A DNA stretch of 64,000 nucleotides from the sequence record CP033547.1; one strand, 5' to 3'. The translations under genes were made by a program, and so were the position numbers. The notes below the pieces were generated by a model. The model was not told the origin of the DNA. It searched no databases and saw only the letters and a list, made by a program, of their open reading frames with translations. This document shows, piece by piece, positions 2,648 to 28,563 of this stretch. The first letter of the stretch is position 1, and every line of letters starts with the position of its first letter. Origin of the DNA: a plasmid.

Positions 2648-3467
2648 GGCACTGTTGCAAAGTTAGCGATGAGGCAGCCTTTTGTCTTATTCAAAGGCCT
2701 TACATTTCAAAAACTCTGCTTACCAGGCGCATTTCGCCCAGGGGATCACCATAATAAAATGCTGAGGCCTGGCCTTTGCGTAGTGCACGCATCACCTCAA
2801 TACCTTTGATGGTGGCGTAAGCCGTCTTCATGGATTTAAATCCCAGCGTGGCGTTGATTATCCGTTTCAGTTTGCCATGATCGCATTCAATCACGTTGTT
2901 CCGGTACTTAATCTGTCGGTGTTCAACGTCAGACGGGCACCGGCCTTCGCGTTTGAGCAGAGCAAGCGCGCGACCATAGGCGGGCGCTTTATCCGTGTTG
3001 ATGAATCGTGGGATCTGCCACTTCTTCACGTTGTTGAGGATTTTACCCAGAAACCGGTATGCAGCTTTGCTGTTACGACGGGAGGAGAGATAAAAATCGA
3101 CAGTGCGGCCCCGGCTGTCGACGGCCCGGTACAGATACGCCCAGCGGCCATTGACCTTCACGTAGGTTTCATCCATGTGCCACGGGCAAAGATCGGAAGG
3201 GTTACGCCAGTACCAGCGCAGCCGTTTTTCCATTTCAGGCGCATAACGCTGAACCCAGCGGTAAATCGTGGAGTGATCGACATTCACTCCGCGTTCAGCC
3301 AGCATCTCCTGCAGCTCACGGTAACTGATGCCGTATTTGCAGTACCAGCGTACGGCCCACAGAATGATGTCACGCTGAAAATGCCGGCCTTTGAATGGGT
3401 TCATGTGCAGCTCCATCAGCAAAAGGGGATGATAAGTTTATCACCACCGACTATTTGCAACAGTGCC
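2648..3467 (-). mobile_element. IS26 (IS6 family), 820 bp, 14-bp IRs GGCACTGTTGCAAA; no flanking 8-bp duplication
   Basis: IR at 2648-2661 and inverted copy at 3454-3467; encodes Tnp26 identical in sequence pattern to IS26. Confidence 0.95.
2700..3404 (-). CDS. tnpA: IS26 transposase Tnp26
   Basis: MNPFKGRHFQRDIILWAVRWYCKYGISYRELQEMLAERGVNVDHSTIYRWVQRYAPEMEKRLRWYWRNPSDLCPWHMDETYVKVNGRWAYLYRAVDSRGRTVDFYLSSRRNSKAAYRFLGKILNNVKKWQIPRFINTDKAPAYGRALALLKREGRCPSDVEHRQIKYRNNVIECDHGKLKRIINATLGFKSMKTAYATIKGIEVMRALRKGQASAFYYGDPLGEMRLVSRVFEM. Confidence 0.95.
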   Translation of the reverse strand: MNPFKGRHFQRDIILWAVRWYCKYGISYRELQEMLAERGVNVDHSTIYRWVQRYAPEMEKRLRWYWRNPSDLCPWHMDETYVKVNGRWAYLYRAVDSRGRTVDFYLSSRRNSKAAYRFLGKILNNVKKWQIPRFINTDKAPAYGRALALLKREGRCPSDVEHRQIKYRNNVIECDHGKLKRIINATLGFKSMKTAYATIKGIEVMRALRKGQASAFYYGDPLGEMRLVSRVFEM

Positions 3468-4452
<985 letters not shown>

Positions 4453-4482
4453 AGAATTAGAAGTTTGAGGTTAATCTATTTT

Positions 4483-5285
4483 TGGTAGTGTTTCAAAAAG
4501 TATGCTGGAAGAAAAAAGCCGATTGGATTTTGATAAAATAGAGAAATGCAAATAACTCTAGCAATCAAATGTCCAACCTGCCTCAGTGATAGTATAAAGA
4601 AAAATGGTATCAAAGTAGATGGGAAACAAAACTATCAGTGCAAAGACTGTAAACGTCAGTTTATTGGTGATCATGCACTGAGCTATCTAGGATGTAAGTC
4701 AGGTATTACTCGTAAAATATTACAGTTGATGGTCAGAGGCAGCGGTATACGAGATATTGCTGAAGTTGAGCGCATCAGTATCGGTAAAGTTTTACGTACT
4801 TTAACTGAATCAACCTATGAAATTCAGCCTCAGCAAAGTCATTATGAATCTCTCGAAGTAGATGAGTTCTGGAATTTTGTTGGAAATAAAAAGAATAAAC
4901 AATGGCTTATTTACGCCTATCATCGAGAAACAGGTGAAATTGTTGCTTATGTTTGGGGTAAACGAGATTTAGCTACAGTCTAACAATTGAAGACAAAGCT
5001 TAAACAATTAGATATTCACTACACCCGAATTGCAAGTGATCATTGGGACAGTTTCATCACTGCTTTTTAAAAAATGGTAAGCAAAGTATTGGTAAATTTT
5101 TTACTGTAGGTATTGAAGGCAATAATTGCAAAATAAGGCATAGAATTAGGCGTAGCTTCAGAAGAAGCTGTAATTTTTCAAAAAGCTTGAAAACCATTTT
5201 AAAGCTTTTGATTTAGCCTTCTTTTCTTTTACATCAATAATGGCTTCATTTAAAGGCAGCATACTTTTTGAAGCACCACCAAAAT
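4483..5285 (+). mobile_element. ISAba3 (IS1 family), ~803 bp, IRs TTTGGTAGTGTTTCAAAAAGTATG / TTTGGTGGTGCTTCAAAAAGTATG
   Basis: Terminal inverted repeats at 4483 and 5262-5285; classic blaOXA-58 flanking element. Confidence 0.85.
4546..4983 (+). CDS. ISAba3 transposase (IS1-family InsA-like N-terminal ORF with zinc-finger CPTC...CKDC)
   Basis: [53 protein letters not shown]...; remainder of Tpase in other frame to 5260. Confidence 0.85.
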   Translation: MQITLAIKCPTCLSDSIKKNGIKVDGKQNYQCKDCKRQFIGDHALSYLGCKSGITRKILQLMVRGSGIRDIAEVERISIGKVLRTLTESTYEIQPQQSHYESLEVDEFWNFVGNKKNKQWLIYAYHRETGEIVAYVWGKRDLATV

Positions 5286-5336
5286 TTTATGTTAAGTAGA
5301 GACTAAAAATGCCCTTGATTAAGGGCTTACAAGGGC

Positions 5337-6821
5337 TGTTATTCCCAAGTAGAAATGTCCTACCTAATAACCAAATAGAAATGTCCTATATGGACATTTC
5401 CAAGTCAAGCACAGGATTTAGATTTCGTTGTTCAATCGCTGTTTTCTGTGCTTGTCTACGTGGCATCTTTTGAGAACGATTGCGTTTGTTTTGGTGTTCC
5501 AGTTGTTCATGCTGTTGTTGAATATGTGCCAGCACAGAACCCAAACGTTTATTCTCAACGATCTCTCGCTGGTTGAGCTGACTTAATTTATCAAAGATGC
5601 TGTAATTGATTTTTCTTCCCTGATATTCAATGGCTACAGTACCATCCGGATATTCCAAGGAACTCAAGATACTTGCCGCCCAATCTTTGATTTTCTTCGC
5701 TGTTTTCCAAGATATATACGCATTTATCATAAGTAATCGTCAAGCTGTTCGTGACCCTGCGGGGTTCACGCCAGGTAAAAACATCATCTAATTCTTCGGC
5801 TGTTTCAGCGATAGGCCGATGTAGATCCTTGGAATTAAAAGCCATCTTGGCGAATTTACGATTAAATTGCTCAATAAAAGCACGGCAGCCACTTATTGGC
5901 ATCTGCAATTGAACTGATGCCTTCTAGACGCATCTCCTTAATCAGACGATCCTGAAGTGTTCTATTCGCTCGTTCTACACGACCTTTGGCTTGAGGGGAG
6001 TTAGCGAAAATGATATCGATATTGAGAGTGCTCAGAACACGTCCAAACTGGGTAATCTTGGTGTCTTTCTTGCTACTTTGATTCACCCTAAAAACTGAAT
6101 GTTTGTCACTGTAAAATGCCAATGGCTTACCATGCTGTTCGATATATAAACGTGTCGAAATCATATAGTCAAAGGCTGACTCTGACGCACAGAAGCGTAA
6201 ATGCTGCAATTTTCCTGTGGCATCATCGATGAATACTAGCAGACAGCATTTAGGTGCTCGACCTTCAAACCAATCATGGTGTGAGCCATCAATTTGGATC
6301 AATTCACCATAACAATCTCGGTTATAACGAGGCTGATATGGTCGTTTCAGGCGCTTGCAGCGAGGGATCCATAAATCGGCTGCAATCATCCAAGGAACGC
6401 AGGGTTTCTACTGAAAGATCGAATCCATGCACGGTGGTGAGCTTTTCATGCGCTAAAGTGGGTCCGAAACCATAAAGTTGATCTGAAACAATATTGAGAC
6501 ACTTAAGTCTGAGTTCTTCAGGAAGTTTAGAATTGCTGATTTGGCCACGACCGGCATGGGCTAATGCAGCGGGACCTTGAGCTTTGTATTTCTGCAGTAA
6601 GCGTCTGATGTGACGTTCTGAGATATGAAGTAGCTGAGCAGCCTGGGATTGAGTTATACGTTGATCACAGATTTCTTGCAAGACCGACAATCGTTTAAGT
6701 TCTTTATCCGACATAGACACCAACATATCAAACCGTCCGCTAAGGAAATTGCAAAAGCGCATATTCTAAAAGCGGACATTTTTACTTTGGAGAAACCGGA
6801 CATTTCTATTTTGGGCTTACA
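5337..6821 (-). mobile_element. IS copy A (ISNCY/IS1202-group-like, ~1485 bp), transposase split into 4 ORFs (5386..6762), flanked by 5-bp duplication AGGGC
   Basis: Ends TGTTATTCCCAAGTAGAAATGTCC (5337) and GGACATTTCTATTTTGGGCTTACA (6821), shared with copies at 14854 and 21647; AGGGC at 5332-5336 and 6822-6826. Confidence 0.8.
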
Positions 6822-6826
6822 AGGGC

Positions 6827-6854
6827 ATTTTGTATAAGGTGTATTATGTTAATT
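6827..6854. other. pdif site (XerC-spacer-XerD): ATTTTGTATAA GGTGTA TTATGTTAATT
   Basis: 11-6-11 dif-like architecture; immediately follows TSD of IS copy A. Confidence 0.8.
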
Positions 6855-6916
6855 TTAGAATTTCTTCATTAGATAATTTTTGATAAGCTAAATCCATTAG
6901 GACTAATTAAGTAAAT

Positions 6917-7733
6917 ATGAGCAATTGGGTCAATGTCACACAGGATAAGTCTACAGGTATAGAACTAATTCATGCCCACTTCAAAGGCTTTGCATACGAT
7001 CCTCATCTACACTCAAGTTATCTTATAGGGGTAACAGAGTTAGGACATCAACAATTCAATTGTAGAAAAAAAAAATTATTGATAGCTATCAAGGTCAAAC
7101 TTTCATGCTTGAACCTGAAGAAGTTCATGATGGTAATGCACCAGATCCTCTCGGCTTCACTTATAAAATGATGCATTTAGATCCAGCATGGTTAAAAAAA
7201 AAGCTATGAAGGAATATTTAATGAGCCTATCGAACTTGCTATCGAATCAACCCTACGTTCTGATCCTCAACTTTCACATTTGATACTTTCAACCTACAAT
7301 ATATTGAATAACAATGAATCTCAATTGATGAAAGATACGTATTTAGATCTTTTATTAGAAAACTTAGTAAATAAAAAAATTTTATATAAACGTGAAAAGT
7401 CTATCCAGACATTACCTAATATTGCATTAAAGCTAAAAGAAATTTTACATGAAAGTCTCTTTCATGATTTAGACTTACAAACACTCTCAACATTGGTGAA
7501 AACAGATCGTTTTTATATTAACCGTGTATTTAAAAAAACTTTAACTGTTCTCCACATCAATATCTGATCCAACTCCGTTTAAATAAGGCAAAAGAATTGT
7601 TAAGAAAAGGATTATCAGCAACAACTGTTGCTTCATATCTTTGTTTTTCTGATCAAAGTCATCTAGGTCGATGGTTTAAACGTTGTTATGGCATAACATT
7701 GAATCAATATCAAAAGCGTGCACAAATGTTCTA
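6917..7733 (+). pseudogene. araC1: AraC-family transcriptional regulator (araC1 of the blaOXA-58 region), multiple frameshifts at A-runs (7070-7079, 7194-7203)
   Basis: N-terminal cupin-like MSNWVNVTQDKSTGIELIHAHFKGFAYDPHLHSSYLIGVTELG...; C-terminal HTH ...LKRCYGITLNQYQKRAQMF in other frames. Confidence 0.6.
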
Positions 7734-7789
7734 GATATATCTTGAAGATATTTATCAAACTAGCCAAATAGTTTATTAATTTTTGGATT

Positions 7790-8399
7790 TTATTTTGGAA
7801 ACGATTTTAGCTTTTTGTGCCTTTTCTTTTGTTGCATCAATTACTCCTGGACCAACCAATTTCCTTATTCTTAGTACAAGTCATCAATTCAGTATTAAAA
7901 AACATTAGGCTTAATCTTCGGTGGAAGTATTGGTGCTGCATCATTAGTCTTAATTACAGGACTTGGAATTGGTACAACACTCAATGAATACCCCAAGATT
8001 CAATTAATATTAAGTTTCACTGGCGGCATTTGGTTAAGCTATATTGGATGGAAAATTTTTAATTATAGACCTGATCTAGAATCTAAAATCCAAAATCAAA
8101 ATAAGAAAAATGGTTTTTTTACAGGCTTCTTTTTACAGTTTATCAACCCTAAAAGCTGGTTGATGGCTATTGCTGTTATTACTGTTTATACAGCACAACT
8201 AGCTAACTACTATCAGTCACTCATTCTATTTTCATTCATCTTTATGCTGATTTCTCTACCTTGTTTATTTATTTGGGCTTATTTAGGAAAAATCACAAAA
8301 AAAATACTTTCTACAGCTCATCATATGGTGCTCTTTAATCGAGTATTAGGTACTGTTTTACTTATTTCAGTATGGTATCCAATATTGCATGCTATTTAA
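7790..8399 (+). pseudogene. lysE: LysE/RhtB-family amino-acid exporter (lysE of blaOXA-58 region), frameshifted
   Basis: Hydrophobic ORFs 7790.. and 8160..8399 (MAIAVITVYTAQLANYYQSLILFSFIFML...) typical LysE translocator; ends at pdif. Confidence 0.55.
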
Positions 8400-14853: not shown

Positions 14854-16340
14854 TGTAAGCCCAAAATAGAAATGTCCGGTTTCTCCAAAGTAAAAAATGT
14901 CCGCTTTTAGAATATGCGCTTTTGCAATTTCCTTAGCGGACGGTTTGATATGTTGGTGTCTATGTCGGATAAAGAACTTAAACGATTGTCGGTCTTGCAA
15001 GAAATCTGTGATCAACGTATAACTCAATCCCAGGCTGCTCAGCTACTTCATATCTCAGAACGTCACATCAGACGCTTACTGCAGAAATACAAAGCTCAAG
15101 GTCCCGCTGCATTAGCCCATGCCGGTCGTGGCCAAATCAGCAATTCTAAACTTCCTGAAGAACTCAGACTTAAGTGTCTCAATATTGTTTCAGATCAACT
15201 TTATGGTTTCGGACCCACTTTAGCGCATGAAAAGCTCACCACCGTGCATGGATTCGATCTTTCAGTAGAAACCCTGCGTTCCTTGGATGATTGCAGCCGA
15301 TTTATGGATCCCTCGCTGCAAGCGCCTGAAACGACCATATCAGCCTCGTTATAACCGAGATTGTTATGGTGAATTGATCCAAATTGATGGCTCACACCAT
15401 GATTGGTTTGAAGGTCGAGCACCTAAATGCTGTCTGCTAGTATTCATCGATGATGCCACAGGAAAATTGCAGCATTTACGCTTCTGTGCGTCAGAGTCAG
15501 CCTTTGACTATATGATTTCGACACGTTTATATATCGAACAGCATGGTAAGCCATTGGCATTTTACAGTGACAAACATTCAGTTTTTAGGGTGAATCAAAG
15601 TAGCAAGAAAGACACCAAGATTACCCAGTTTGGACGTGTTCTGAGCACTCTCAATATCGATATCATTTTCGCTAACTCCCCTCAAAGCCAAAGGTCGTGT
15701 AGAACGAGCGAATAGAACACTTCCAGGATCGTCTGATTAAGGAGATGCGTCTAGAAGGCATCAGTTCAATTGCAGATGCCAATAAGTGGCTGCCGTGCTT
15801 TATTGAGCAATTTAATCGTAAATTCGCCAAGATGGCTTTTAATTCCAAGGATCTACATCGGCCTATCGCTGAAACAGCCGAAGAATTAGATGATGTTTTT
15901 ACCTGGCGTGAACCCCGCAGGGTCACGAACAGCTTGACGATTACTTATGATAAATGCGTATATATCTTGGAAAACAGCGAAGAAAATCAAAGATTGGGCG
16001 GCAAGTATCTTGAGTTCCTTGGAATATCCGGATGGTACTGTAGCCATTGAATATCAGGGAAGAAAAATCAATTACAGCATCTTTGATAAATTAAGTCAGC
16101 TCAACCAGCGAGAGATCGTTGAGAATAAACGTTTGGGTTCTGTGCTGGCACATATTCAACAACAGCATGAACAACTGGAACACCAAAACAAACGCAATCG
16201 TTCTCAAAAGATGCCACGTAGACAAGCACAGAAAACAGCGATTGAACAACGAAATCTAAATCCTGTGTTTGACTTGGAAATGTCCATATAGGACATTTCT
16301 ATTTGGTTATTAGGTAGGACATTTCTACTTGGGAATAACA
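14854..16340 (+). mobile_element. IS copy B (same ISNCY/IS1202-like element), transposase in 4 fragments (14914..16291); 6 bp (AACCTG) from XerC arm; no TSD detectable
   Basis: Ends TGTAAGCCCAAAATAGAAATGTCC (14854) and GGACATTTCTACTTGGGAATAACA (16340). Confidence 0.8.
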
Positions 16341-16391
16341 ACAGATGCTTTTTAAATTGTGTTATAATTCAGTATGCTAACACCTAGTTTA

Positions 16392-16425
16392 CAGCCCACT
16401 CACCCTCGAGTGGGCTTTTTTTATG
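16392..16425 (+). terminator. Rho-independent terminator hairpin CCCACTCACCCTCGAGTGGGCTTTTTTT
   Basis: Perfect stem CCCACTC/GAGTGGG followed by T7 run. Confidence 0.5.
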
Positions 16426-16726
16426 ATTTTTCACGTTCCACGCCTATTCTTTAATCAATGTTCCACGGTTTTATTTAATGTTGCTGAACAATCAATGGAT
16501 ACCAGTAAAGCCCTTTAGGTCTTCTGTTGCTTCAAATATAAAGTCTCTACGATCAAGGATTAGACAATCTTTATTGTGTCGTCTGACTGATCTTGTGGCT
16601 TTGCTAATATCATGGCAATCCCAAGATTTGGGATAATACTTTATTAAAGAACGGACAATCTTGTTTTTATATTCTGAGGTTTTCTATAATCTTAATTATG
16701 TTACATAATCAAGATTGATAATAAAA

Positions 16727-17290
16727 ATGACGCAAAATAAGCATGGTGGTGCACGCAAAGGTTCTGGCCGTCCTTTTTGTCTATAACGAACCGACCAAGG
16801 TCATTCGGGTGCCAGAGTCTCGTGTATTGGAAATCAAGAAATACCTGAAAAAAAATGACACTCCAAAGTTTAACGATATTTCCTCTATTACATTGCTTGG
16901 AGACAAAAACACATTATGAGATTCCTGTTGCTTTGCAAAAAGTTGCTGCAGGCTTCCCTTCCCCTGCTCAGGACTATATCGATAAGACCCTTGATCTAAA
17001 CGAGTTTCTTATTCAAAACCAACAGGCAACCTTTATCGTTGAAGTGGAATCCTTATCCATGCGTGATGCAGGGATTGATCTGAATGACAAGCTAATCGTT
17101 GACCGTAGTATTGAAGCCAAGCATGGGGATATTGTTCTGGCATTGATAGACAATGATTTTACGATTAAACGTTTAATGATTGAGGGTAATCAATGCTGGT
17201 TGCAGGCGGCTAATCCTGATTTTGCTGATATCTATTTGAAAGATAATCAAACCATGCTGATTTGGGGTGGGGCAAGTATGTACAGGATGC
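16727..17290 (+). pseudogene. umuD: UmuD-like S24 LexA-family peptidase (UmuDAb-like), frameshifted N-terminus
   Basis: MTQNKHGGARKGSGRP... ; ...VAAGFPSPAQDYIDKTLDLNEFLIQNQQATFIVEVESLSMRDAGIDLNDKLIVDRSIEAKHGDIVLALIDNDFTIKRLMIEGN... Confidence 0.7.
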
Positions 17291-17741
17291 GGTCATACGT
17301 TTACGAGCAGACGCTTCCTTATGTGGATGTGTCATTGCTTTTGTGCAATCGAATCCTTTTGATTCAAAGGTTCCCTATTACAGTAAATCGTTGGCTTTTG
17401 AGTTTCCTGAACCGACGGATTGTGTTTTGGATCTGATTAAAACAGCTATGCAACTGCTGGAACACATTTATAAATCTGACGTGAAATATAAAAAGTGTGG
17501 TGTAATTCTGACGGATTTAATTGCTAAGCAGCGCTTTACTCCTGACCTGCTGACGGACCACAGCCAGCGTGAAAGTAATGAAAGCCTCATGCAGACTTTA
17601 GAAGCGGTACAGGCGAGATATGGGAAAACTAAATTAGCTGTTGGCAGCTGCTACTTGCCACAACGAAAGTGGTCCATGAATCGTACCCATTTGACCCAAA
17701 ACTATTTCAGCTGGCAGGGATTATTAAAGATCAGCCATTAA
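17262..17741 (+). pseudogene. umuC: Truncated umuC (C-terminal ~160 aa of Y-family DNA polymerase V), fused directly after umuD
   Basis: ...KYKKCGVILTDLIAKQRFTPDLLTDHSQRESNESLMQTLEAVQARYGKTKLAVGS... aligns to C-terminus of full umuC at 41371..42668. Confidence 0.65.
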
Positions 17742-17994
17742 ATTAATTAGCCTCACCTATTTGGTTTAAGTCAGCTTAATGAAGAACTCGACACATAAGC
17801 CGACACAGGCTTGATCCTCAGTCAACCATTTAACAACGTAAGTATGTTGTTTGGGATCCATGTAACACCTCTCGAGGAAAAGGTGGTTAGTAATAAAACT
17901 CTGCTCAAGCAAATTTATTGGGTTAACTGTCAGTTTTCACCATCTCATGTCCTTTATTTCTAGAACATTCTAGACTTTTCTCGACCTAGAATTT

Positions 17995-18189
17995 TTATTC
18001 TTTAAAGGTGTCATTCAACGCCTGTTGCACAGCATCAATACGTAATTTGCAGGCTTTATAGGCAGTCATGGACTCTTCAACGATCGCCATAAGGTTATCA
18101 ATATCCGGTTCTTCCTGAGATTCAAGAAATTCGGCATTTTTCTTGAGAATTTCATAACCTTTCTTGAAACTTAGTTCTTCATTGTTCAT
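17995..18189 (-). CDS. xseB: Exodeoxyribonuclease VII small subunit
   Basis: MNNEELSFKKGYEILKKNAEFLESQEEPDIDNLMAIVEESMTAYKACKLRIDAVQQALNDTFKE. Confidence 0.8.
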   Translation of the reverse strand: MNNEELSFKKGYEILKKNAEFLESQEEPDIDNLMAIVEESMTAYKACKLRIDAVQQALNDTFKE

Positions 18190-19446
18190 GTGCGTTTACC
18201 TGTGTCACGGTGGCATCAATGGTGCCATCCTTAAGTTCAATCTGTAATTGCTGGTCAGTAATCTGCTGTATGGAACGGATGGCTTTGCCTTGGCTACGGA
18301 CAATTGCATAGCCCTTGGCCATCACATTACGTGGATTCTGTAGCAAGGTTTCCCTCATCAATGACTCTACCTGCTGTGAAGCTAGTTTAATCTGTTGTTG
18401 AGCAAGATACTTAGTATCACTCTTCAGCATATCAACTCTACGTTGGGCTTCATTGATCTGGTTCTGTGTCAGAGTTTTGATAGTTTTCAGATACTGATCA
18501 CTCTGGCTCTGGTAGGTGATCAACTGGTGCTGTGACAGTAGCTTGATGGTCTGCAAAGCAGTACTAACTTCATTGACTCGCTCCACAATCAGGTTACGGA
18601 TCCCTGCGATCACTTTACTCGGAGTATCAAAGGAACGGTGTGCAATTTCATCCAAAATAGTGTGGTCTTTCTCGTGGCCAATACCGACCCAGATAGGCAC
18701 AGTTCTTTTTACACAGCAGTGCGGCCAGATCATAATCATTCAGGTAAGCTAGGTCATTCACGGCTCCACCACCACGGATAATCACAATAAGGTCTGGTGC
18801 TATCAAGTAATCTTGAGCCCACTGTCTTAAGGCACGGCCCAAAACCTGAATGATGCTGGCAGAAGCAGTATTACCCTGAAAAGTTGCTGAATGATAAACG
18901 AAATGGCAGACACCAGCCTGAGCCAGGGCATCCGCATCTTTTTAAAGTCACCTAACCCTGCAGCATTTTCCGGTGCAATGACCAAGACATTCTGAATATC
19001 AAAGGGTACCGGCAACTGTTTATTGTTATTGAGCAGGCCTTCCTCAGTCAGTCGCAGCAGAATCTGCTGATAGCGTTTGGCGATGTCTCCTAGAGTAAAG
19101 CTAGAGTCGATATCTTCGATATTGACCGAGAAGCCATATTGCGGATCAAATCTAGCTTTGACCTTGATCAGTACATTCAGGTCTTTCGACAGTTCAATAC
19201 CACTTTCTCGTTCAAACTTTAGAACTATTTTTGTGCCGTAAATTTCCAAATGGTGCCTTTACAACTAGCGATCACCTTATGGCTTTCTTCATCTTTCTCA
19301 GCCAACTCAAGATAATAGTGACCGCCTTTAATACTTAAATTACGGATCTCAGCCTTGACCCACACTGCCCCATCAAAAGTCAGATGGATGACTTCCTGTA
19401 CAGTGGCAAGGTATTCACTAAGGCTGAGTTGTTGACGTTCTGACAT
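18179..19446 (-). pseudogene. xseA: Exodeoxyribonuclease VII large subunit, split into 4 ORFs by frameshifts
   Basis: N-terminal OB-fold ORF MSERQQLSLSEYLATVQEVIHLTFDGAVWVKAEIRNLSIKGGHYYLELAEKDEES...; catalytic region ...NDLAYLNDYDLAALLCKKNCAYLGRYWPRERPHY...; C-terminal coiled-coil ORF. Confidence 0.75.
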
Positions 19447-19662
19447 GATGTAAAGGATAGCTAAAATATAAGGAGGTGAGATTTAACCTAATATTGATCA
19501 ATTCTACTGCAAATCAGATGAGTTTATTGCAATTTTGAGAAATGTATAAGTTCTTCTTAGACACCTAGAGTGATCATTGAGATTTTTAGTTTAATTATAC
19601 TTTTATATTAAAATAGATATATAATCAATAAAATCATTATATTTTACTATTTTAATAAAATT

Positions 19663-20967
19663 ATGAAGCAATACTGTACACTGCAAATCTACCAAGACTA
19701 TGAATGGCATGACTGTGCTTTGGTTGAGGTTACGGATGATCAAAATGCTGGATGGCAGGCAGCTACACGTACATCATATTTGTTCGAATATGCTATTTCA
19801 TATATGGATCTAAGAGATGGTCATGCGCTTGCTTATGACTTACCAGTGAACGTTCAAAATAGATTGGAATCAACTTGGCCAGCATTTCTTATGGATCTAT
19901 TACCTCAAGGATACGGCCGCAAAGAATTACTAATACAGCTTGATTTTTCTGAGAATGTTCAGGAACAAGCGGACTGGGCGCTTTTAAAAGCAGGCGCAGG
20001 AAATCCAATTGGGAATCTGCGAGTCAAAGAGGCTCATGAGTGGTTACAAAGTCATTTCCCAAAGCTGCAGAATCAGGGATTTAGCCTAAGCCAAATTATT
20101 GAACGTAAAGAGAAGTTTATTGAATCGCTCGCATCTTATGGACTTTTTATTGCTGGTTCATCTGGTATTCAGGGTGAGTGGCCAAAATTGTTGTTAACAC
20201 AAGGTTATGATGATCTTTTCTATCTAGATCATACTCTTCCAGATGATCAAGTTAAGCAGCATTGGTTGGTTAAATTTAGCCGCGGCAGTGATCAAAATTT
20301 GAATAAAATCCTGATGAACGAAGCTTTGTATATGAAAGTCGCTCAGTACTTGCAACTACGTGTACACCGGGATCTTGAGCTACATGGCAAGACTTTGTTT
20401 ATTCCAAGATTTGATCGCAAAGTAATTAATGGCAAAGTTGAAAGAATTGCTCAGGAAAGCCTTGCATCTCTAGGTGGGAAGGCGGGCTTTGGGGTTAGAA
20501 TGACCCATAATCAAATATGTACCCTGCTTATGGAGGCTTGTACCGAACCAAAGCAGGAAGTATTTGAGTATTTGAAGCGTGATCTCGCAAATGTTGCCTT
20601 AGGCAATAAAGATAACCATACTCGCAATACAGCAATCCAACGCTTCAATAATGGTAAAATTCAGCTCACACCATTATTTGATTTTGCGCCAATGTGGTTA
20701 CATCCTGATGGTATTGCACGTACTACTCGTTGGGAAAGAGATGATCATGGTGGTATGCCACTTTTGAGTTCTGTGATTGAGCAGATAGCTGAAAGCACTT
20801 CGATTGGTCCACAAGAAATTAAAACTTTATTAATTGAACAGTTACCAATTTATCGGGGATTGTTAGAAAAGATGCAGGCTCTTCAAGTAGCGGATGAAAT
20901 TCTGGAAAATAGCCAATATCGAATAATCAATATTTGCCAGCAGTTGGAGGAGATCAGCCATGGATAA
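19663..20967 (+). CDS. HipA-like Ser/Thr kinase toxin (HipA_N + HipA_C)
   Basis: 434 aa; ...DLLPQGYGRKELL..., ...ALGNKDNHTRNTAIQRFNNGKIQLTPLFDFAPM... (HipA catalytic-loop-like). Confidence 0.65.
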   Translation: MKQYCTLQIYQDYEWHDCALVEVTDDQNAGWQAATRTSYLFEYAISYMDLRDGHALAYDLPVNVQNRLESTWPAFLMDLLPQGYGRKELLIQLDFSENVQEQADWALLKAGAGNPIGNLRVKEAHEWLQSHFPKLQNQGFSLSQIIERKEKFIESLASYGLFIAGSSGIQGEWPKLLLTQGYDDLFYLDHTLPDDQVKQHWLVKFSRGSDQNLNKILMNEALYMKVAQYLQLRVHRDLELHGKTLFIPRFDRKVINGKVERIAQESLASLGGKAGFGVRMTHNQICTLLMEACTEPKQEVFEYLKRDLANVALGNKDNHTRNTAIQRFNNGKIQLTPLFDFAPMWLHPDGIARTTRWERDDHGGMPLLSSVIEQIAESTSIGPQEIKTLLIEQLPIYRGLLEKMQALQVADEILENSQYRIINICQQLEEISHG

Positions 20968-21237
20968 ACGTTTTAAACCATTGACCCCTATTCAACAAAT
21001 GGAAAAAAGACTATCTGTGCTTGAAACCATCAATAATCATCCAGACTGGTCTTTTTATCAAGTTGCTCGATTTATTCGAACAGAGCTACATTTAACACTG
21101 AATGATATGGCTAAAATTACTAAGATTGCGCCACAGACACTGCAAAAATGGAGCAACCAGGGAGCAATCCTACTTTGAAATCCATGCAGAAATTACTCGA
21201 TACTTTCGGTTTACAATTACAAATAAAAGTTAAATGA
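20960..21237 (+). pseudogene. Small HTH DNA-binding protein (putative HipB-like partner) overlapping hipA-like stop; frameshift near 21165
   Basis: MDKRFKPLTPIQQMEKRLSVLETINNHPDWSFYQVARFIRTELHLTLNDMAKITKIAPQTLQKWSNQG... then ...PTLKSMQKLLDTFGLQLQIKVK in +1 frame. Confidence 0.5.
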
Positions 21238-21331
21238 TTTTTAATTCTGAGCCATCGGTTTTTCTAAAATCTTATCCGTTTAAGGATACAAAGAGGAAAT
21301 AAACAGGCTCTAGGTTGTTTTATGATTATTT

Positions 21332-21553
21332 TTAGACAAACGACTCCAAAACCTTATGTAGCAAGGGTTTTGTCTCTACAGTAATTAATTTATTTTTGAA
21401 AAAATGGAGTAGAGTGTTTGAAATATGAATAATCGAATTCCGAGTTTCTGTAAGCACAGCAATTTCATCTGCATGTGCTTTATATTCATCTATATTTTCG
21501 AGTAATTCATCCTCTGAGAATGGGAGTTTTTTTTGATTTTCAGTGTCGTTCAT
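21332..21553 (-). CDS. Hypothetical protein (73 aa)
   Basis: ORF only. Confidence 0.25.
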   Translation of the reverse strand: MNDTENQKKLPFSEDELLENIDEYKAHADEIAVLTETRNSIIHISNTLLHFFKNKLITVETKPLLHKVLESFV

Positions 21554-21646
21554 AGAGTCATATCCTGAGAAGTTATTTAGATCATCATAAACCAGACATT
21601 TTTAATGGTGAGAATACAGACACTTTAAATGGTTTCTAACAAGATT

Positions 21647-23130
21647 TGTTATTCCCAAGTAGAAATGTCCTACCTAATAACCAAATAGAAATGTCCTATA
21701 TGGACATTTCCAAGTCAAGCACAGGATTTAGATTTCGTTGTTCAATCGCTGTTTTCTGTGCTTGTCTACGTGGCATCTTTTGAGAACGATTGCGTTTGTT
21801 TTGGTGTTCCAGTTGTTCATGCTGTTGTTGAATATGTGCCAGCACAGAACCCAAACGTTTATTCTCAACGATCTCTCGCTGGTTGAGCTGACTTAATTTA
21901 TCAAAGATGCTGTAATTGATTTTTCTTCCCTGATATTCAATGGCTACAGTACCATCCGGATATTCCAAGGAACTCAAGATACTTGCCGCCCAATCTTTGA
22001 TTTTTCTTCGCTGTTTTCCAAGATATATACGCATTTATCATAAGTAATCGTCAAGCTGTTCGTGACCCTGCGGGGTTCACGCCAGGTAAAAACATCATCT
22101 AATTCTTCGGCTGTTTCAGCGATAGGCCGATGTAGATCCTTGGAATTAAAAGCCATCTTGGCGAATTTACGATTAAATTGCTCAATAAAGCACGGCAGCC
22201 ACTTATTGGCATCTGCAATTGAACTGATGCCTTCTAGACGCATCTCCTTAATCAGACGATCCTGAAGTGTTCTATTCGCTCGTTCTACACGACCTTTGGC
22301 TTGAGGGGAGTTAGCGAAAATGATATCGATATTGAGAGTGCTCAGAACACGTCCAAACTGGGTAATCTTGGTGTCTTTCTTGCTACTTTGATTCACCCTA
22401 AAAACTGAATGTTTGTCACTGTAAAATGCCAATGGCTTACCATGCTGTTCGATATATAAACGTGTCGAAATCATATAGTCAAAGGCTGACTCTGACGCAC
22501 AGAAGCGTAAATGCTGCAATTTTCCTGTGGCATCATCGATGAATACTAGCAGACAGCATTTAGGTGCTCGACCTTCAAACCAATCATGGTGTGAGCCATC
22601 AATTTGGATCAATTCACCATAACAATCTCGGTTATAACGAGGCTGATATGGTCGTTTCAGGCGCTTGCAGCGAGGGATCCATAAATCGGCTGCAATCATC
22701 CAGGAACGCAGGGTTTCTACTGAAAGATCGAATCCATGCACGGTGGTGAGCTTTTCATGCGCTAAAGTGGGTCCGAAACCATAAAGTTGATCTGAAACAA
22801 TATTGAGACACTTAAGTCTGAGTTCTTCAGGAAGTTTAGAATTGCTGATTTGGCCACGACCGGCATGGGCTAATGCAGCGGGACCTTGAGCTTTGTATTT
22901 CTGCAGTAAGCGTCTGATGTGACGTTCTGAGATATGAAGTAGCTGAGCAGCCTGGGATTGAGTTATACGTTGATCACAGATTTCTTGCAAGACCGACAAT
23001 CGTTTAAGTTCTTTATCCGACATAGACACCAACATATCAAACCGTCCGCTAAGGAAATTGCAAAAGCGCATATTCTAAAAGCGGACATTTTTACTTTGGA
23101 GAAACCGGACATTTCTATTTTGGGCTTACA
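21647..23130 (-). mobile_element. IS copy C (same ISNCY/IS1202-like element, 1484 bp), flanked by AAGATT duplication; least damaged copy
   Basis: AAGATT at 21641-21646 and 23131-23136; same terminal sequences as copies A/B. Confidence 0.85.
21696..23071 (-). CDS. IS transposase (~470 aa; N-terminal HTH, DDE/rve integrase core), one frameshift at ~22000 (extra T)
   Basis: MRFCNFLSGRFDMLVSMSDKELKRLSVLQEICDQRITQSQAAQLLHISERHIRRLL...IQIDGSHHDWFEGRAPKCCLLVFIDDATGKL... Confidence 0.8.
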
Positions 23131-23136
23131 AAGATT

Positions 23137-23164
23137 GCTTCACATAAGAGATTTTATGTTAAAT
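23137..23164. other. pdif site (XerC-spacer-XerD): GCTTCACATAA GAGATT TTATGTTAAAT
   Basis: dif-like 11-6-11 immediately after TSD of IS copy C. Confidence 0.7.
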
Positions 23165-23762
23165 GTCTTTTTTCATTGCTCTCTGAACTGTTGCAATACC
23201 TACAAACAAAATAAACGCAATCGTTCTCAAAAGATGCCAAGCAGACGTGCACAGAAAACAGTAATCAAAGAACGAAATCTGAATCCTGTGCTTGACTTGG
23301 AAATGTCTGTATAGGACATTTCTACTTGGGAATAACATCATCATGCTATATAAGTATTTAACCGTATTCTTTTATTTTTTGGCGCACCATGTATATAGAT
23401 ACAAAAAAAAGCAATTATTGGATAAATTAATATAGCTCCACCTGCTCGACCATCTACGGATGGAGATAAGGACATGCTTAAAACAATAAATACAATAAGA
23501 TATAAAATATAACATGTTCCCCAAGTTAATAATCCAAAGAGTATAGGGAAACAAAATTTTGAAATAACTCCAAAGGGCTTCGATCTTTTATAGAGATGCT
23601 TTTCAAAAGATTATTCGAAATATTAACAGCAACAATTGTCATAAATAGATTAAAAAGCAGAAAATAAAGCATACTAAAAATTAAATATGAAAAATAATTT
23701 ATTATATATTAGTTGATTAAATTTAACATTAATTAAAATATACGTTTAAAGATAAGCAATAA

Positions 23763-23790
23763 AAAACCCCGACATCCTGTCGGGGTTTTT
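23763..23790. terminator. Bidirectional rho-independent terminator AAAAACCCCGACATCCTGTCGGGGTTTTT
   Basis: Perfect GC-rich stem flanked by A-run and T-run. Confidence 0.55.
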
Positions 23791-24193
23791 CGTGTTTGGT
23801 TGCAAGGTATAACTCCTGTCGTACCTAACCATCCTTGTGCTGATCTTTCTTATTCTTATTGTTTGGAGCTTCCTGCTCTCTATGACTTCATCATAAGAAA
23901 TAACGCTTTGATCAGCTAGAAGCAGATTCCTTAAATTACTGTACGTCAAAGCGTACAAAACTGGCTTAAAAATAGCCCCCAGATTTATCCGCAGAAATTG
24001 TGGATTTTTTTCAGGCTGAAAGCCTTATAGATTGTAGGTGATTTTCTGTTTTGAGTGTTTTTAAGCAAAACTGTTGGCAAAAATATCAAAACCGCTCACA
24101 AAAAAAGCCGACTATTTCAAAGTCGGCTTTTTGGGCATTTTGGATTTTTATGATTTAAATAAGTATCTGATTTTTATATTAATATACGAGTGT

Positions 24194-24221
24194 ATTGCGT
24201 ATAAGCACCATTATGTTAAAT
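24194..24221. other. pdif site (XerC-spacer-XerD): ATTGCGTATAA GCACCA TTATGTTAAAT
   Basis: dif-like 11-6-11. Confidence 0.7.
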
Positions 24222-24290
24222 AGACAGTGAATTAGTGGAAAAATCCAGTTATTGTGAAGCGTGGATAAGAGATTTTATGTCGAGCAATGA

Positions 24291-24776
24291 TTACCTATCA
24301 ACAAAGTATTCAGATAAAGTCTGTTTCCATTGAGATTGTATCTCTTTATTCTTATCTCTATATTTCTCAATACATTTCATAAGGTTATATCTATTTTTTG
24401 TACAAATAGTATCTGCTATTTTACTTAATACATCTATTTGATAAGGAATAGTTAGGCCAAATTTCTCAAGGAGAATATCTATTTCTGGTAAAAATAATCT
24501 GACTAATTCTTCATTAGATTTATTAAATTTGTTTTTAAATTCTTGAGGAATACATGAATTTCCTATGCGATCATAAATTTCAGGATTTTGAACATAATGC
24601 TTATTTTCCAATATAAGGCCTTTGTATCTAAGATACTCAATATCAATTTTTGATAAATCTTGCTCAAGAAAATAATAACAAGTCCATTTTATTTGTGATA
24701 AATGAGTTAATTCAACAAATTGGAATGGTCTCTCAATATATATTCCCGTATTATTTATTATTTCACTAATAAACAA
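24291..24776 (-). CDS. Hypothetical protein (161 aa), downstream of and co-oriented with the CBASS-like operon
   Basis: ORF only; no recognisable domain. Confidence 0.35.
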   Translation of the reverse strand: MFISEIINNTGIYIERPFQFVELTHLSQIKWTCYYFLEQDLSKIDIEYLRYKGLILENKHYVQNPEIYDRIGNSCIPQEFKNKFNKSNEELVRLFLPEIDILLEKFGLTIPYQIDVLSKIADTICTKNRYNLMKCIEKYRDKNKEIQSQWKQTLSEYFVDR

Positions 24777-24814
24777 TATAAAATTAATATGATTCTTATT
24801 TAGATATTTTAGAG

Positions 24815-24918
24815 TAGACCTCTTGCGAAAGTATTATTTTTGACTATTTTAGACTTTGATATTTATTTAAAAATCAACGTTTATCACTGATTAAATTTTG
24901 ACTAACGCAAGAGGTCTA
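24815..24918. repeat. MITE-like 104-bp element with 13-bp terminal inverted repeats TAGACCTCTTGCG...CGCAAGAGGTCTA; same left end as IS5-family remnant at 31033
   Basis: TAGACCTCTTGCGAAAGTA at 24815 and 31033; inverted copy at 24903-24918. Confidence 0.6.
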
Positions 24919-25093
24919 TATATTATTGGGGATATTAAAGTGAAGAGAGTCGCTGAGACTTATACAACTTAAAAAATATTTATGTATGCCGACCTTATTT
25001 AAAACAAAAAGACTCTTAATTAAAAAAAACAATATATTTATTTTAACAATTAACTGCTTCGTTAATTAGTCATTTAATCTAACTAAAGAATAT

Positions 25094-26167
25094 CTACAAA
25101 GTCGGTTTCTCTTCAATAGATGAAGTATTAGAACTTTCTGAAAATTTACCATTATGTAATTTTTCAAAGCAATGTGGACAGGTGTCTCGAGCCACTAATT
25201 TCATATCATTAATTTTTCTACCAGTGTAACCAATACTGTAACGAGTAAAATAGTTATTTTCTAATTGATTAGAATTTCTCCATTCTAAAAGAAGATCGAT
25301 TGCTAAACCCGCCACAGATAGACTGGATGAAACTGAATAAGGAGTATATGCAGCGCAAGGTCCCAAGCCCATAACTTTTTTATAGTCCTTATTCCCTAGA
25401 GGGTCTAAATCATCTTTATAATCCTGTATTCCAGATTGATGCAAACAACTAATACATCCACCTTTACTCTCATAATCGGAAGGAGTATTCATCAATGCTT
25501 GCACACATTCTCCATTGCCATATATCCATAAATGTAAAAGGTGTGGCCTATCATGTGCAGGTATTTGAATTATCTTTTCATTTAAATACTCTGCGATTTC
25601 AACTTGTCCAGTAGAATCTACTATTAAATCATATTCGTCAAAATTACTAATTGTATTTACACTTTTTTCTACAGAGTGAATGAAAAGTCCATTATTACCA
25701 ACCTGCTCTTTAATATATTCGATTATTGCATTTGCTTTATTTAATCCAATATACTTTTTCCCTAATATATGTCTTCCTATATTTTCAAGTTTAAGGTCAT
25801 CATAATCACAAACACTAAAACAACCTGTTTCCATACCAGCACCAATTTTAACTAATGCATCTGCAACATATCCTCCGATTGCACCTGCTCCAATTTGTAA
25901 AATTTTCAGATTCGTTAAATTATTGTTTTTAATACCTTCTATATTTCTATTAATTAATTCTTGCATACAGTAACTCTTTATATAAACAGGTAACACCATC
26001 TCCCTCAATATTTCCGATAATATTCTCACATTCCCTTTTAACAATTTATAATATTTACTCTTCCATTCTACAAAAAATGAAAAAAAATGATTCTCAAAGA
26101 CCAAAGAAACGAATATTTTTTTATCGGATTTAAATTTATTTAAATTTCTTTTTAAAACAAAAAACAA
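25094..26167 (-). CDS. cap2: E1-like (ThiF/MoeB-family) adenylyltransferase, Cap2-like
   Basis: Rossmann GAGAIGG, two CxxC (GCISCLHQ, CPHCF); 357 aa; ORF 26271..26570 upstream may be its N-terminal (E2?) part. Confidence 0.7.
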   Translation of the reverse strand: MFFVLKRNLNKFKSDKKIFVSLVFENHFFSFFVEWKSKYYKLLKGNVRILSEILREMVLPVYIKSYCMQELINRNIEGIKNNNLTNLKILQIGAGAIGGYVADALVKIGAGMETGCFSVCDYDDLKLENIGRHILGKKYIGLNKANAIIEYIKEQVGNNGLFIHSVEKSVNTISNFDEYDLIVDSTGQVEIAEYLNEKIIQIPAHDRPHLLHLWIYGNGECVQALMNTPSDYESKGGCISCLHQSGIQDYKDDLDPLGNKDYKKVMGLGPCAAYTPYSVSSSLSVAGLAIDLLLEWRNSNQLENNYFTRYSIGYTGRKINDMKLVARDTCPHCFEKLHNGKFSESSNTSSIEEKPTL

Positions 26168-26270
26168 TTAGGATCAATATCATTAATAAATAAAAACATT
26201 TTCCCTAATGTTATCTCCCCCTCCCTATTAAAGTAATTTGACAATAAAGGAATATTATCTTTAAAAACTT

Positions 26271-26570
26271 TCAACAAAATAAAATCAAAATCAATCGTTT
26301 TTGACATTTATTATCTTTAGTAGAAATATATGTTAAAGGTAGATTCTGAAAACTCCCATTATTATTTAACTCCACAAATAAGTTTTCAGAACTATACTTT
26401 TTCTCAAACTCATTTGAAAATATCATCCACATTGGAATTATTTCTTTTCTCAACTCTTTCATAAAAATTGAGGGATTCATTAATTCTAATATTACATGTT
26501 TAAATTGGCTTTCCAGAAAACATATAACATCTACCAGATTCTTTCTATTAATTTCTATTTTGTCATGCAA
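26271..26570 (-). CDS. Hypothetical 99-aa ORF between JAB and E1 genes (possibly N-terminal portion of Cap2 separated by frameshift)
   Basis: ORF only; contains Cys (DVICFLES) but no clear UBC motif. Confidence 0.3.
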   Translation of the reverse strand: MHDKIEINRKNLVDVICFLESQFKHVILELMNPSIFMKELRKEIIPMWMIFSNEFEKKYSSENLFVELNNNGSFQNLPLTYISTKDNKCQKRLILILFC

Positions 26571-26882
26571 GGCATAGCAAAAATTATAGGCTTTTTATTC
26601 AAATAAGTAAAATGAGAATCAATTGAAAAATGAGGCAAAGGGAAAATAAAATGTTTAATCCTTTTATTTACTTCCAATTAAATCATCTTCAAACAAATAC
26701 ACTCTTGGAGGATTAATAAAATCCCAATCCAAAAAAAAATACACCTAATCTTATATTGAATCCAGATACAACAATATTTTTCACCCATAAACTATTGTAA
26801 AACCGTTTTTTTAAATTTGTATCATAGGGATCCACTAGATTATAACCTAGCTGTGTAAGATATTGAGCACATGAAGCGGGAA

Positions 26883-27383
26883 TCAAAGCGTATCCCCCTC
26901 ATAAACTCTTAAAGCATAATATTTTTTATTTAAAAGTAAACTAAACCAATCTTCTTTATAACTTTTGTTTCCTGCTATCCATAGTAACTTAGGAAGCTCA
27001 TTAAATTTCCCATTACTAATAAGTTGACTCCACCCTTGATAATCACAATTAGAAGGCCGTGGTTGTGGTTCTGGATGAGTATGCCATTCGCCTATATATT
27101 GTAATATCCCATTTGAAATTTCATGTACCTTGTTTAAATAACTTTGATGTTTTGTAGACTTTCTATGAAAGCTATAAATAGTTCTTTCATCATCATCTGC
27201 TGGAGAACTAATATCGATTACCCTTAATGATTTACTACGTATTTCACCAATAATTATTCCACACGCCTCAGCTTTTTGAGCATCTGCAAACTGTCTGTGA
27301 AGATGAATTAAATGAAGTGCACTATCTGTTAAGTGCACTTCAAATCTTAGTTCATCAGAATAAAGATGCAAGCCCAACTTCAC
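26883..27383 (-). CDS. cap3: JAB/MPN+ (JAMM) metallopeptidase, Cap3-like
   Basis: JAMM motif E...HTHPEPQPRPSNCD (HxHx7Sx2D); GTG start overlaps upstream stop (GTGA). Confidence 0.8.
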   Translation of the reverse strand: MKLGLHLYSDELRFEVHLTDSALHLIHLHRQFADAQKAEACGIIIGEIRSKSLRVIDISSPADDDERTIYSFHRKSTKHQSYLNKVHEISNGILQYIGEWHTHPEPQPRPSNCDYQGWSQLISNGKFNELPKLLWIAGNKSYKEDWFSLLLNKKYYALRVYEGDTL

Positions 27384-28563
27384 CCACCCCTTGTAGGTTC
27401 AATTATTGCTGGGGACGTAGCTTGATATGGCAATTCCTGATTAGCATTCTCAATAACCACATAACTTTCATTGTCAGGAATTCTTTTTCCGAATTGGCTT
27501 CGCAGAAAACCAATTGAAGTTTTAGGTGATTCAATATCAATAGCTACTGAAACTGCGCTAAGTAAATCTTTAGCTAAATCATGCGCTTCTTGTCTTTCCT
27601 CTTTAGGAATTCTATTGAAGTCTTCATCTGTATGTTCAGGAATAGAAGGTTCTTTGACTGGCCCAAGTAATGCCTTTGGGAGATGTCTTAAAACATGCAA
27701 TAAAAGCAAGATCATCTCTATCTTTAACATATTGATAATTTTGATTTGCTATAATCATCAGCAATATTGAGCTTGGCCCTCCACCATCTTTATATTCTTG
27801 ATCTCGCCAAGCTTTAAGATAACGAGCAATATATCTTAATTGCCGACCATTATCTTCTTGATCAGCCAAAAAATCTGCATACCATTTACGAATTAACTCA
27901 CAGTCACTATCTTTCCAATTACCATCACGTAAAGCCATATGGATTTTAGTAATGTAATGTAATTCGATGATTTTCGCTTCACTTTCAAAGCTTTCAGTTG
28001 CGTAGTGATAACCCTTGAATACATATTCATCTTTGGCAATTGTTGCTTTTGCCTCATCTAGAATCATATTGTTTCTTTCAACTAAGCTATCGAACATTGG
28101 ATCAGGTACAATATAAAGAGGTACATCCATATGTGCATTGCCTTTCAATATAAGTCGGCAACAAGTATTTTTATCTTTACATAGTTTCCAACCCTCACTA
28201 TCAGCCAAAGGTTGCAATAACGTTTCCACTGCCAAATAATATGATTTAGCTACCTTATCAGAACGTCCCTGAGCTAATAAAGAATTTGGAAGGTACACAC
28301 CATAATCAACATCCATTTCTTGTGTAGGGTATGCTGGCTGGTTACAAGTACCATAAGCCCAAGATCCTTGAAGACGGAATTTTGGCTTAACAAGATTTGG
28401 ATCGCCTCCATTCTCTACAATGAAATTTGCCATACCTTGCTTCCAGCGTGGCTCTTACCTTTTGACGACACGCATTTAAATAATCACGCTGATCATTTGT
28501 AGGCTTAATTTGTGTAATAAAGCCGTCATCTCTAGCTCTAAAAGTTCTGTGTAAATTACTACC
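27380..28563 (-). pseudogene. cdn: cGAS/DncV-like nucleotidyltransferase (CD-NTase/SMODS), two frameshifts (near 27700 and 28440)
   Basis: GS...DxD motif: RLQGSWAYGTCNQPAYPTQEMDVDYGVYLP, third acidic HMDVPLY; N-terminal MGSNLHRTFRARDDGFITQIKPTNDQRDYLNACRQKVRATLEA in adjacent frame. Confidence 0.7.

Follow-up and report, generated by a model that had tools for sequence, protein, structure and literature searches.

A kinase-first hip-like gene pair, probably a toxin–antitoxin-like module, on an Acinetobacter multiresistance plasmid

The 64,000-nucleotide stretch of plasmid record CP033547.1 that was analysed here (the window) carries a module of approximately 1.65 kb, at positions 19592–21237, in which the gene of a HipA-type Ser/Thr kinase is followed by the gene of a HipB-like helix-turn-helix (HTH) protein of the XRE family. 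The HTH open reading frame (ORF) starts at 20960 within ATGGATAAACG and overlaps the stop codon of the kinase by 8 nt (ATGGATAA), and a divergent xseBA pair lies upstream of the kinase on the opposite strand. An earlier note, made from the letters of the window, had described a 434-aa HipA-like ORF, an overlapping downstream HTH gene and a neighbouring divergent xseAB operon. The first two are confirmed by the ORFs, by Pfam matches to HipA_C and Couple_hipA and by the 8-nt overlap, and the operon is present as described and intact in plasmid records.

Table 1 Features of the Hip kinase–HTH module in the window
Feature	Position	Strand	Length, match or basis
HipA-type Ser/Thr kinase gene, putative toxin	19663..20967	+	434 aa; Pfam HipA_C and Couple_hipA
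HipB-like XRE-family HTH gene, putative antitoxin/autorepressor	20960..21237	+	92 aa when intact
Putative regulatory region moving with the module	19592..19662	+	Cross-context homology and inverted repeat; operator and promoter roles inferred
Shine-Dalgarno sequence GGAGGAG of the HTH gene	20946..20952	+	Sequence; lies within the 3'-terminal part of the kinase gene, 7 nt upstream of the ATG at 20960

Residues 25–121 of the kinase correspond to Couple_hipA, the HipA N-terminal domain (E-value 9.8e-9), and residues 169–360 to HipA_C (E-value 3.2e-27). The kinase motifs comprise a Gly-rich loop (G165-SSGIQGEWP-K175), K204, E220, R249-FDR, the catalytic D317-N-H-T-R-N322 and the Mg-binding D340. 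Among 77–107 family members, G171, K175, K204, E220, R249-F-D, D317-N-H319, N322 and D340 are invariant or nearly so, and the motif residues align with K157, K181, D309, H311, N314 and D332 of Escherichia coli HipA (the Gly-rich-loop lysine, the ATP lysine, and the catalytic and Mg-binding residues). The AlphaFold2 model, which was built on 77 sequences, has a predicted local distance difference test score (pLDDT) of 94 and a predicted template modelling score (pTM) of 0.93, with residues 163–166 the only stretch below a pLDDT of 50. Its top Foldseek matches in the Protein Data Bank (PDB) are full-length HipA structures from Shewanella and E. coli (PDB entries 4pu5, 3tpt and 3dnt; E-values of 5e-16 to approximately 1e-14, template modelling (TM) scores of 0.66–0.74 and 13–18% identity); HipT cores come next, and CtkA follows far behind. 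As modelled, the kinase adopts the HipA fold over its whole length, N-terminal subdomain included, and has all four kinase motifs, and judged by these intact motifs it is catalytically competent.

By sequence the kinase is remote from its structural relatives. A phmmer search of the PDB returned only Legionella pneumophila HipT (E-value 3e-7), and no HipA at an E-value of 0.01 or below. In pairwise BLASTP comparisons the kinase is 24% identical to HipH/YjjJ over 303 aa (E-value 7e-7) and 23% identical to E. coli HipA over 145 aa, and the only full-length NCBIfam model matched is that of YjjJ, with a score of 35.9 bits where the cut-off is 401. Whereas pairwise BLAST and NCBIfam favoured HipH/YjjJ as the closest kinase, a profile built from 107 family members scores classical (clade I) HipA proteins at 65–82 bits and HipH/YjjJ at 44.5 bits, with the members themselves at 373–532 bits. 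Because of this contradiction, only a deep, separate branch is claimed: the profile scores place the kinase in a distinct and moderately sized family of Hip kinases that is remote from all characterized ones, in agreement with the earlier suggestion of a distinct HipA subfamily. Among the 1.84 billion representatives of a sequence library, 215 clusters (50% identity) belong to the family at E-values of 1e-30 or below and 813 at 1e-3 or below.

In the letters of the window, the HTH ORF meets a stop at 21178 after 72 aa, and another frame, with ...EQPGSNPTLKSMQKLLDTFGLQLQIKVK*, runs to 21237. Base-by-base alignment with plasmid pOXA58_100004 and with L005, a contig of a metagenome-assembled genome (MAG), traces the difference to one missing base in the A-run at 21144–21148, which is A5 in the window and A6 in both relatives. 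All 13 near-identical finished Acinetobacter plasmids found in the plasmid collection (from A. pittii, A. baumannii and A. towneri among others) and the MAG contig have A6 and encode an intact 92-aa HTH protein (MDKRFKPLTPIQQMEKRLSVLETINNHPDWSFYQVARFIRTELHLTLNDMAKITKIAPQTLQKMEQPGSNPTLKSMQKLLDTFGLQLQIKVK); the 13 plasmid records match positions 19450–21300 at 99.9%, each with 1852 nt for the 1851-nt query. Over approximately 9.7 kb shared with pOXA58_100004 (NZ_CP027249.2; blocks 17270–21646 and 23131–28456), the window differs at 19 indel positions and by no substitution. These indels are short and nearly all fall in mononucleotide runs or doubled bases (for example at 18706, 18939, 19228, 21144, 23403, 24058 and 26159), and all indel differences from L005 are likewise changes in the length of base runs. 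Three of the indels relative to pOXA58_100004 (18706, 18939 and 19228) split xseA into four ORFs, where the plasmid record has a single gene of 1269 nt. The resulting rate of approximately two short indels per kb is, on this comparison, typical of an unpolished long-read assembly. Since all relatives carry A6 and the differences are confined to indels in base runs, without substitutions, the HTH frameshift is very probably an assembly or sequencing error. The continuation of the HTH gene to about 21237 after a frameshift, as described earlier, is thus present in the letters and very probably absent from the biology. At this error rate the other frameshifted genes of the window are also suspect, and apparent frameshifts in it should not be taken as biology.

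A second hip locus, of classical gene order, lies at 51905–53397 and is also fragmented (HTH ORF 51905–52129; kinase pieces 52129–52359, 52382–52675 and 52606–53397), probably by the same type of error. A kinase fragment from this locus is 32% identical to the toxin-first kinase over 190 aa and only 25% identical to E. coli HipA, so that it does not represent a clade I HipA either.

The best PDB match of the intact 92-aa HTH protein is DdrOC, an XRE HTH structure (E-value 0.0017), its HTH part aligns with that of E. coli HipB, and its A. lwoffii orthologue matches Pfam HTH_3. The HTH is preceded by an N-terminal tail of approximately 30 aa with the consensus M-D-K-R-[FYW]-K-P-L-[ST]-P-x-E, in which position 9 is Ser or Thr in 29 of 31 distinct sequences. 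Residues 1–12 of this tail, encoded at 20960–20995, are conserved across alpha-, beta- and gammaproteobacteria, and from this conservation the tail could be a kinase-docking, pseudosubstrate or phospho-acceptor segment.

In 77 of 79 genome loci the kinase gene is directly followed, in the same orientation, by a homologue of the HTH gene; the remaining two loci end inside the kinase gene. The 77 informative loci come from Acinetobacter and Oxalobacteraceae (for example Herbaspirillum, Janthinobacterium, Massilia and Undibacterium). The same order is found in all eight distant plasmid loci (Agrobacterium, Bradyrhizobium, Acidiphilium, Comamonas, two from Pseudomonas, Rahnella and Ewingella), whose kinases are 30–48% identical to that of the window, and the pair therefore spans alpha-, beta- and gammaproteobacteria. 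The two genes overlap by up to 17 nt or are separated by up to 17 nt; the 8-nt ATGGATAA overlap is shared by most Acinetobacter loci, and in most betaproteobacterial loci the stop abuts the start. Throughout this comparison the HTH gene is the invariable downstream partner of the kinase, abutting or overlapping it. An unrelated HTH gene in homologous loci, named beforehand as the observation that would speak against the pairing, was not what was found, and because the pair recurs in dozens of genomes chance occurrence is not an issue. A small antitoxin encoded upstream was also considered and rejected: the only upstream ORF, of 46 aa, lies on the reverse strand and overlaps the beginning of the kinase gene, and the genes found upstream are not conserved.

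The surroundings of the pair vary with its host. On the plasmids it sits between xseBA/umuDC and an operon of the cyclic-oligonucleotide-based anti-phage signalling system (CBASS) type, and on A. lwoffii chromosomes between the genes of a Rieske oxygenase and an aldehyde dehydrogenase; in Agrobacterium it adjoins traA and in Acidiphilium repC. Nucleotide homology across the Acinetobacter contexts begins 24–71 nt before the ATG of the kinase (mostly 65–71 nt; window positions 19592–19639) and stops at the HTH stop codon or shortly before it. By these homology boundaries, the two genes travel together between chromosomes and plasmids, as one unit. A relative is present on 130 PLSDB plasmids, and no relative of the kinase was found in 50,697 phage records. 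The kinase of the window is 100% identical to a protein on 13 Acinetobacter plasmids, and plasmids from A. pittii, A. baumannii and A. towneri carry identical copies; among the reference genomes scanned, the MAG contig has an identical kinase.

From its sequence, the window as a whole represents a multiresistance plasmid of Acinetobacter, of the same type as pOXA58_100004 and NZ_CP026086.2. Contig L005 (JAJZTL010000047.1, 'Proteobacteria bacterium SKS3.bin72') is essentially identical to this Acinetobacter plasmid backbone and lacks an insertion sequence at 21646–23131. This segment of approximately 1.5 kb, which begins approximately 410 nt downstream of the HTH gene and is absent from both pOXA58_100004 and L005, carries a transposase-like ORF (21974–23071, minus strand, 365 aa) and a 112-aa piece (21696–22034), and a copy of it that is approximately 86% identical lies at 15425–17269. 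Positions 16855–19446 hold umuD and a Y-family polymerase gene (error-prone repair) and then, on the opposite strand, xseB-xseA (exonuclease VII), an unusual plasmid cargo that adjoins the Hip module in A. pittii pOXA58_100004 and in L005 as well. On the other side, approximately 4 kb from the module, the CBASS-type operon occupies the minus strand from about 25094 to 28456 and beyond; its products, judged by homology to an annotated plasmid, are a ThiF/E1-like adenylyltransferase, a Mov34/JAB protein and a DncV-like cGAS/CD-NTase, and indels fragment the operon in the window. The macrolide resistance genes msr(E) and mph(E) and ISNCY-family transposase genes lie at about 3467–8000, according to the annotation of matching plasmids.

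The 70 nt upstream of the kinase gene are conserved and keep a fixed register to its ATG. They contain the exact 11-mer TATTAAAATAG at 19606–19616 (plus strand) and again at 19647–19657 (minus strand), forming an inverted repeat. The arms in Acinetobacter are TTTTATaTTAAAATAG near -62..-47, mirrored by CTATTTTAATAAAA near -16..-3. The GC-rich betaproteobacterial loci (Oxalobacteraceae) have the same layout with another sequence, TACACA-N5-cTATCA at about -63..-46 and TGATA-N-TAT-NN-TGTGTA at about -21..-3. The 11-mer half-site occurs three times in the whole window with one mismatch allowed, against 4.7 expected, which is not above chance; the case for the inverted repeat rests on its conservation across loci. 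This conservation suggests an operator that brackets the promoter. The -10-like hexamer TTTAAT at 19651–19656 spans -12..-7, counted from the A of the kinase start codon. Of 30 loci compared, 20 have a TAnnnT hexamer that ends at -7 and agrees with TATAAT at 4.7 of 6 positions on average, and 25 have one that ends at -10; an end at -7 is the canonical position for a transcript starting at the A of the ATG.

The two start codons differ markedly in their predicted pairing with the ribosome. No Shine-Dalgarno sequence precedes the kinase in the Acinetobacter or betaproteobacterial loci, and the duplex of the kinase start with the 3' end of 16S rRNA has a mean energy of -0.4 kcal/mol over 34 loci, reaching -6 kcal/mol or below in only one (Rahnella, -6.5 kcal/mol). 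The GGAGG-type sites of the HTH start, by comparison, have a mean of -7.5 kcal/mol, with -6 kcal/mol or below in 28 of 33 loci and -9.3 kcal/mol in the window. A scan of 19300–21700 for sigma-70 promoters and terminators gave no more sites than shuffled sequence, and no internal promoter was seen in it before the HTH gene, in the 3' end of the kinase gene. These start sites lend plausibility to the earlier proposal of a different regulatory logic. More specifically, a leaderless or near-leaderless, poorly translated kinase cistron joined to a well-translated, coupled HTH cistron is a hypothesis to which we give roughly even odds. The combination of an SD-less (lacking a Shine-Dalgarno sequence) kinase start behind a -10-like box and a conserved inverted repeat with a strong Shine-Dalgarno sequence for the HTH gene is apparently new; neither the conserved inverted repeat nor the SD-less kinase start was found in the accessible text of PMC8262856.

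That paper (Gerdes, Baerentsen and Brodersen, mBio 2021) presents a tree of 1,239 Hip kinases and reports that the order of the genes was inverted on several occasions. In the deep-branching clade IX, HipE, whose kinases have N-subdomain-1 (12 hipEB modules), the kinase comes first and the HTH protein HipB follows downstream, and sub-clades of clades VI and VII (eight hipAB modules) also place the kinase first and the HTH gene downstream; according to the paper, none of these modules has been studied experimentally. The toxin-first order, singled out earlier as unlike classical hipBA, was thus read correctly and is not new.

We consider it probable, at a little over 70%, that the locus is a self-contained module in which a divergent Hip kinase and a HipB-like HTH protein form a toxin-first, type II toxin–antitoxin (TA)-like pair of the hipEB/hipAB kind, residing on a multiresistance plasmid. 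Strict pairing, mobility and location on plasmids lend a TA function indirect support. By analogy with HipA and HipT, the kinase would phosphorylate an essential factor of translation, probably an aminoacyl-tRNA synthetase, and so arrest growth. The HTH protein would bind and neutralize the kinase and, perhaps together with it, would bind the conserved inverted repeat bracketing the promoter and repress the operon, again as in related systems. Translation would supply the excess of antitoxin despite the reversed order: little kinase would be made, because its AUG has no Shine-Dalgarno sequence and sits where the -10 box would start a leaderless mRNA, and the HTH cistron, with its strong GGAGG and translationally coupled re-initiation, would be expressed efficiently. 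The most likely pay-off for the plasmid is post-segregational stabilization.

Several points weigh against this interpretation. Toxicity, target, neutralization by the HTH protein and DNA binding are all assigned by analogy, and a neighbouring HTH gene is no proof of antitoxin function, since the HipB of hipBST is not the antitoxin. For clades VII and IX, no analysed module appears in Table 1 of PMC8262856. The transcription start is predicted from sequence, -10-like hexamers are common in AT-rich Acinetobacter DNA, and the promoter scan did no better than on shuffled sequence. Distant members can have a Shine-Dalgarno-like site before the kinase, as the value for Rahnella illustrates, and the distance of 24–30 nt between the arms of the inverted repeat would be an unusual spacing for a single HTH dimer.

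It is possible, although unlikely, that the kinase has a dedicated transcriptional repressor and forms no true TA pair with it. The HTH protein would then only repress, like HipB of hipBST, and the kinase, in a regulatory role, would either be restrained by autophosphorylating the serines next to its Gly-rich loop or be only mildly toxic, like HipH/YjjJ. This possibility draws on S166 and S167, which precede the Gly-rich loop as they do in HipH (GSSAGGEQPK) and HipT, on the low confidence of the model at precisely residues 163–166 of that loop, and on PMC8262856, which treats the HipB of hipBST apart from the antitoxin HipBs. However, with an N-terminal subdomain in the kinase itself and no HipS-like gene at the locus, only the HTH protein is left as a candidate neutralizer, and the strict linkage with stop/start overlap in three proteobacterial classes, together with the frequent location on plasmids, fits an addiction module better.

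Similarly doubtful is a reading in which the pair belongs to a toxin-first Hip family separate from HipE and much larger (at least 215 clusters at 50% identity in alpha-, beta- and gammaproteobacteria, frequently on plasmids). Such a family would be made safe by a leaderless, SD-less toxin gene behind a -10 box embedded in the operator, and the tail of the HTH protein (MDKRFKPL[S/T]P.E) could plug the kinase as a pseudosubstrate or phospho-acceptor. If true, this would be a mode of neutralization unlike those of HipB and HipS.

Rather improbable, and compatible with the same molecular mechanism as the TA-like pair, is a main role in anti-phage abortive infection in place of plasmid maintenance, whereby infection would free the kinase and shut down translation. 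The module lies approximately 4 kb from the CBASS operon (ThiF-like, Mov34/JAB and DncV-like) on the plasmid, and PMC8262856 argues that TA modules, some Hip families included, may serve in phage defence. Yet the kinase has no match in PADLOC-DB and, as noted, no relative in the phage collection, so that the label of a defence system has no database support; and because the module has different neighbours elsewhere (in A. lwoffii metabolic genes, and traA or repC in Agrobacterium and Acidiphilium), the link to a defence island is not conserved. Scarcely credible, finally, is a real frameshift that makes the HTH gene a pseudogene or the source of a truncated 72-aa protein, since the A5 read in the window as given is opposed by the extra base in all 13 plasmid records and the MAG contig, by the signature of long-read consensus error in 19 of 19 differences from pOXA58_100004 (short indels, with no substitution), by the indels that also break xseA and other genes, and by the counter-selection that should meet the loss of the sole candidate antitoxin beside a 100% intact kinase.

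Hip kinases are the textbook link between TA modules and antibiotic persistence. The present module is found with 100% conservation on multiresistance plasmids, OXA-58-type ones among them, that A. baumannii, A. pittii and A. towneri have in common and, if it is an addiction module, it would help to keep these plasmids in hospital and farm strains. The SD-less kinase start and the coupled antitoxin start with a strong Shine-Dalgarno sequence offer a simple candidate answer to the question of how a toxin-first operon avoids poisoning its own host. The toxin-first kind is already published and the exact sequence is already in public plasmid records; the possible novelty lies in the translational and operator design and in the N-terminal tail of the HTH protein, both of them conserved. 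In RefSeq the two genes are annotated as encoding a HipA domain-containing protein and a helix-turn-helix regulator, and in two papers on Acinetobacter plasmids (PMC7530245 and PMC6863613) HipA/HipB figures among the putative stability systems, with no remark on the order of the genes.

Among known systems, the module most resembles the hipEB and hipAB modules of PMC8262856. These share with it a kinase gene in first position, a HipB-like HTH gene directly downstream, N-subdomain-1 with the four kinase motifs, and a deep branching relative to classical HipA. The module of the window has every stated feature of hipEB, a likeness drawn from the published description. One difference is of number: only 12 hipEB and eight hipAB modules appear in that paper, against the 215 clusters (50% identity, E-value of 1e-30 or below) counted here. 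A literature search for experimental work on hipEB or HipE returned only the 2021 Gerdes paper.

Classical hipBA, as in E. coli K-12 and Shewanella, shares the kinase fold (TM score of about 0.7 over the full length), the catalytic residues, an XRE-type HTH partner and repeated symmetric sites around the promoter, here a putative one. There, however, the HTH gene is upstream, whereas here the upstream position is taken by divergent xseA or by unrelated genes and the HTH gene is always downstream. Identity to classical HipA is 13–18% in structure-based alignment and 23% over 145 aa in pairwise alignment, and the operator sequences differ; HipB binds TATCC-N8-GGATA operators, and HipA phosphorylates GltX. 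The HTH protein described here has a tail of approximately 30 aa at the N terminus (MDKRFKPL[ST]P.E), whereas that of HipB is at the C terminus. Assignment to clade I hipBA was rejected, as both gene order and sequence grouping with the HipA proteins of E. coli, Caulobacter and Shewanella fail.

HipH/YjjJ of E. coli K-12 is the best pairwise match, and its Gly-rich loop (GSSAGGEQPK) resembles the GSSGIQGEWPK of the kinase. HipH, however, is monocistronic with an HTH fused to its N terminus, whereas the HTH here is encoded by a separate downstream gene; the first 120 residues of the kinase contain no HTH and hold Couple_hipA instead, which, with the NCBIfam score of 35.9 against 401, excludes identity with HipH/YjjJ. 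In hipBST the core kinase domain is similar (phmmer E-value of 3e-7 to L. pneumophila HipT; Foldseek target TM score of 0.70), but HipT lacks the N-terminal subdomain, which HipS supplies in trans, and the gene order is B-S-T, with the HTH gene first. The present kinase, with 434 aa, has its own N-terminal subdomain, and the locus contains no third gene and no HipS-like gene, so that identity with hipBST was likewise rejected.

Toxin genes also precede HTH antitoxin genes in higBA, mqsRA and hicAB, which need a device for antitoxin excess and use extra internal promoters for the antitoxin. The asymmetry in the present module, by contrast, appears to be translational, with an SD-less and possibly leaderless toxin cistron and a strong Shine-Dalgarno sequence for the antitoxin.

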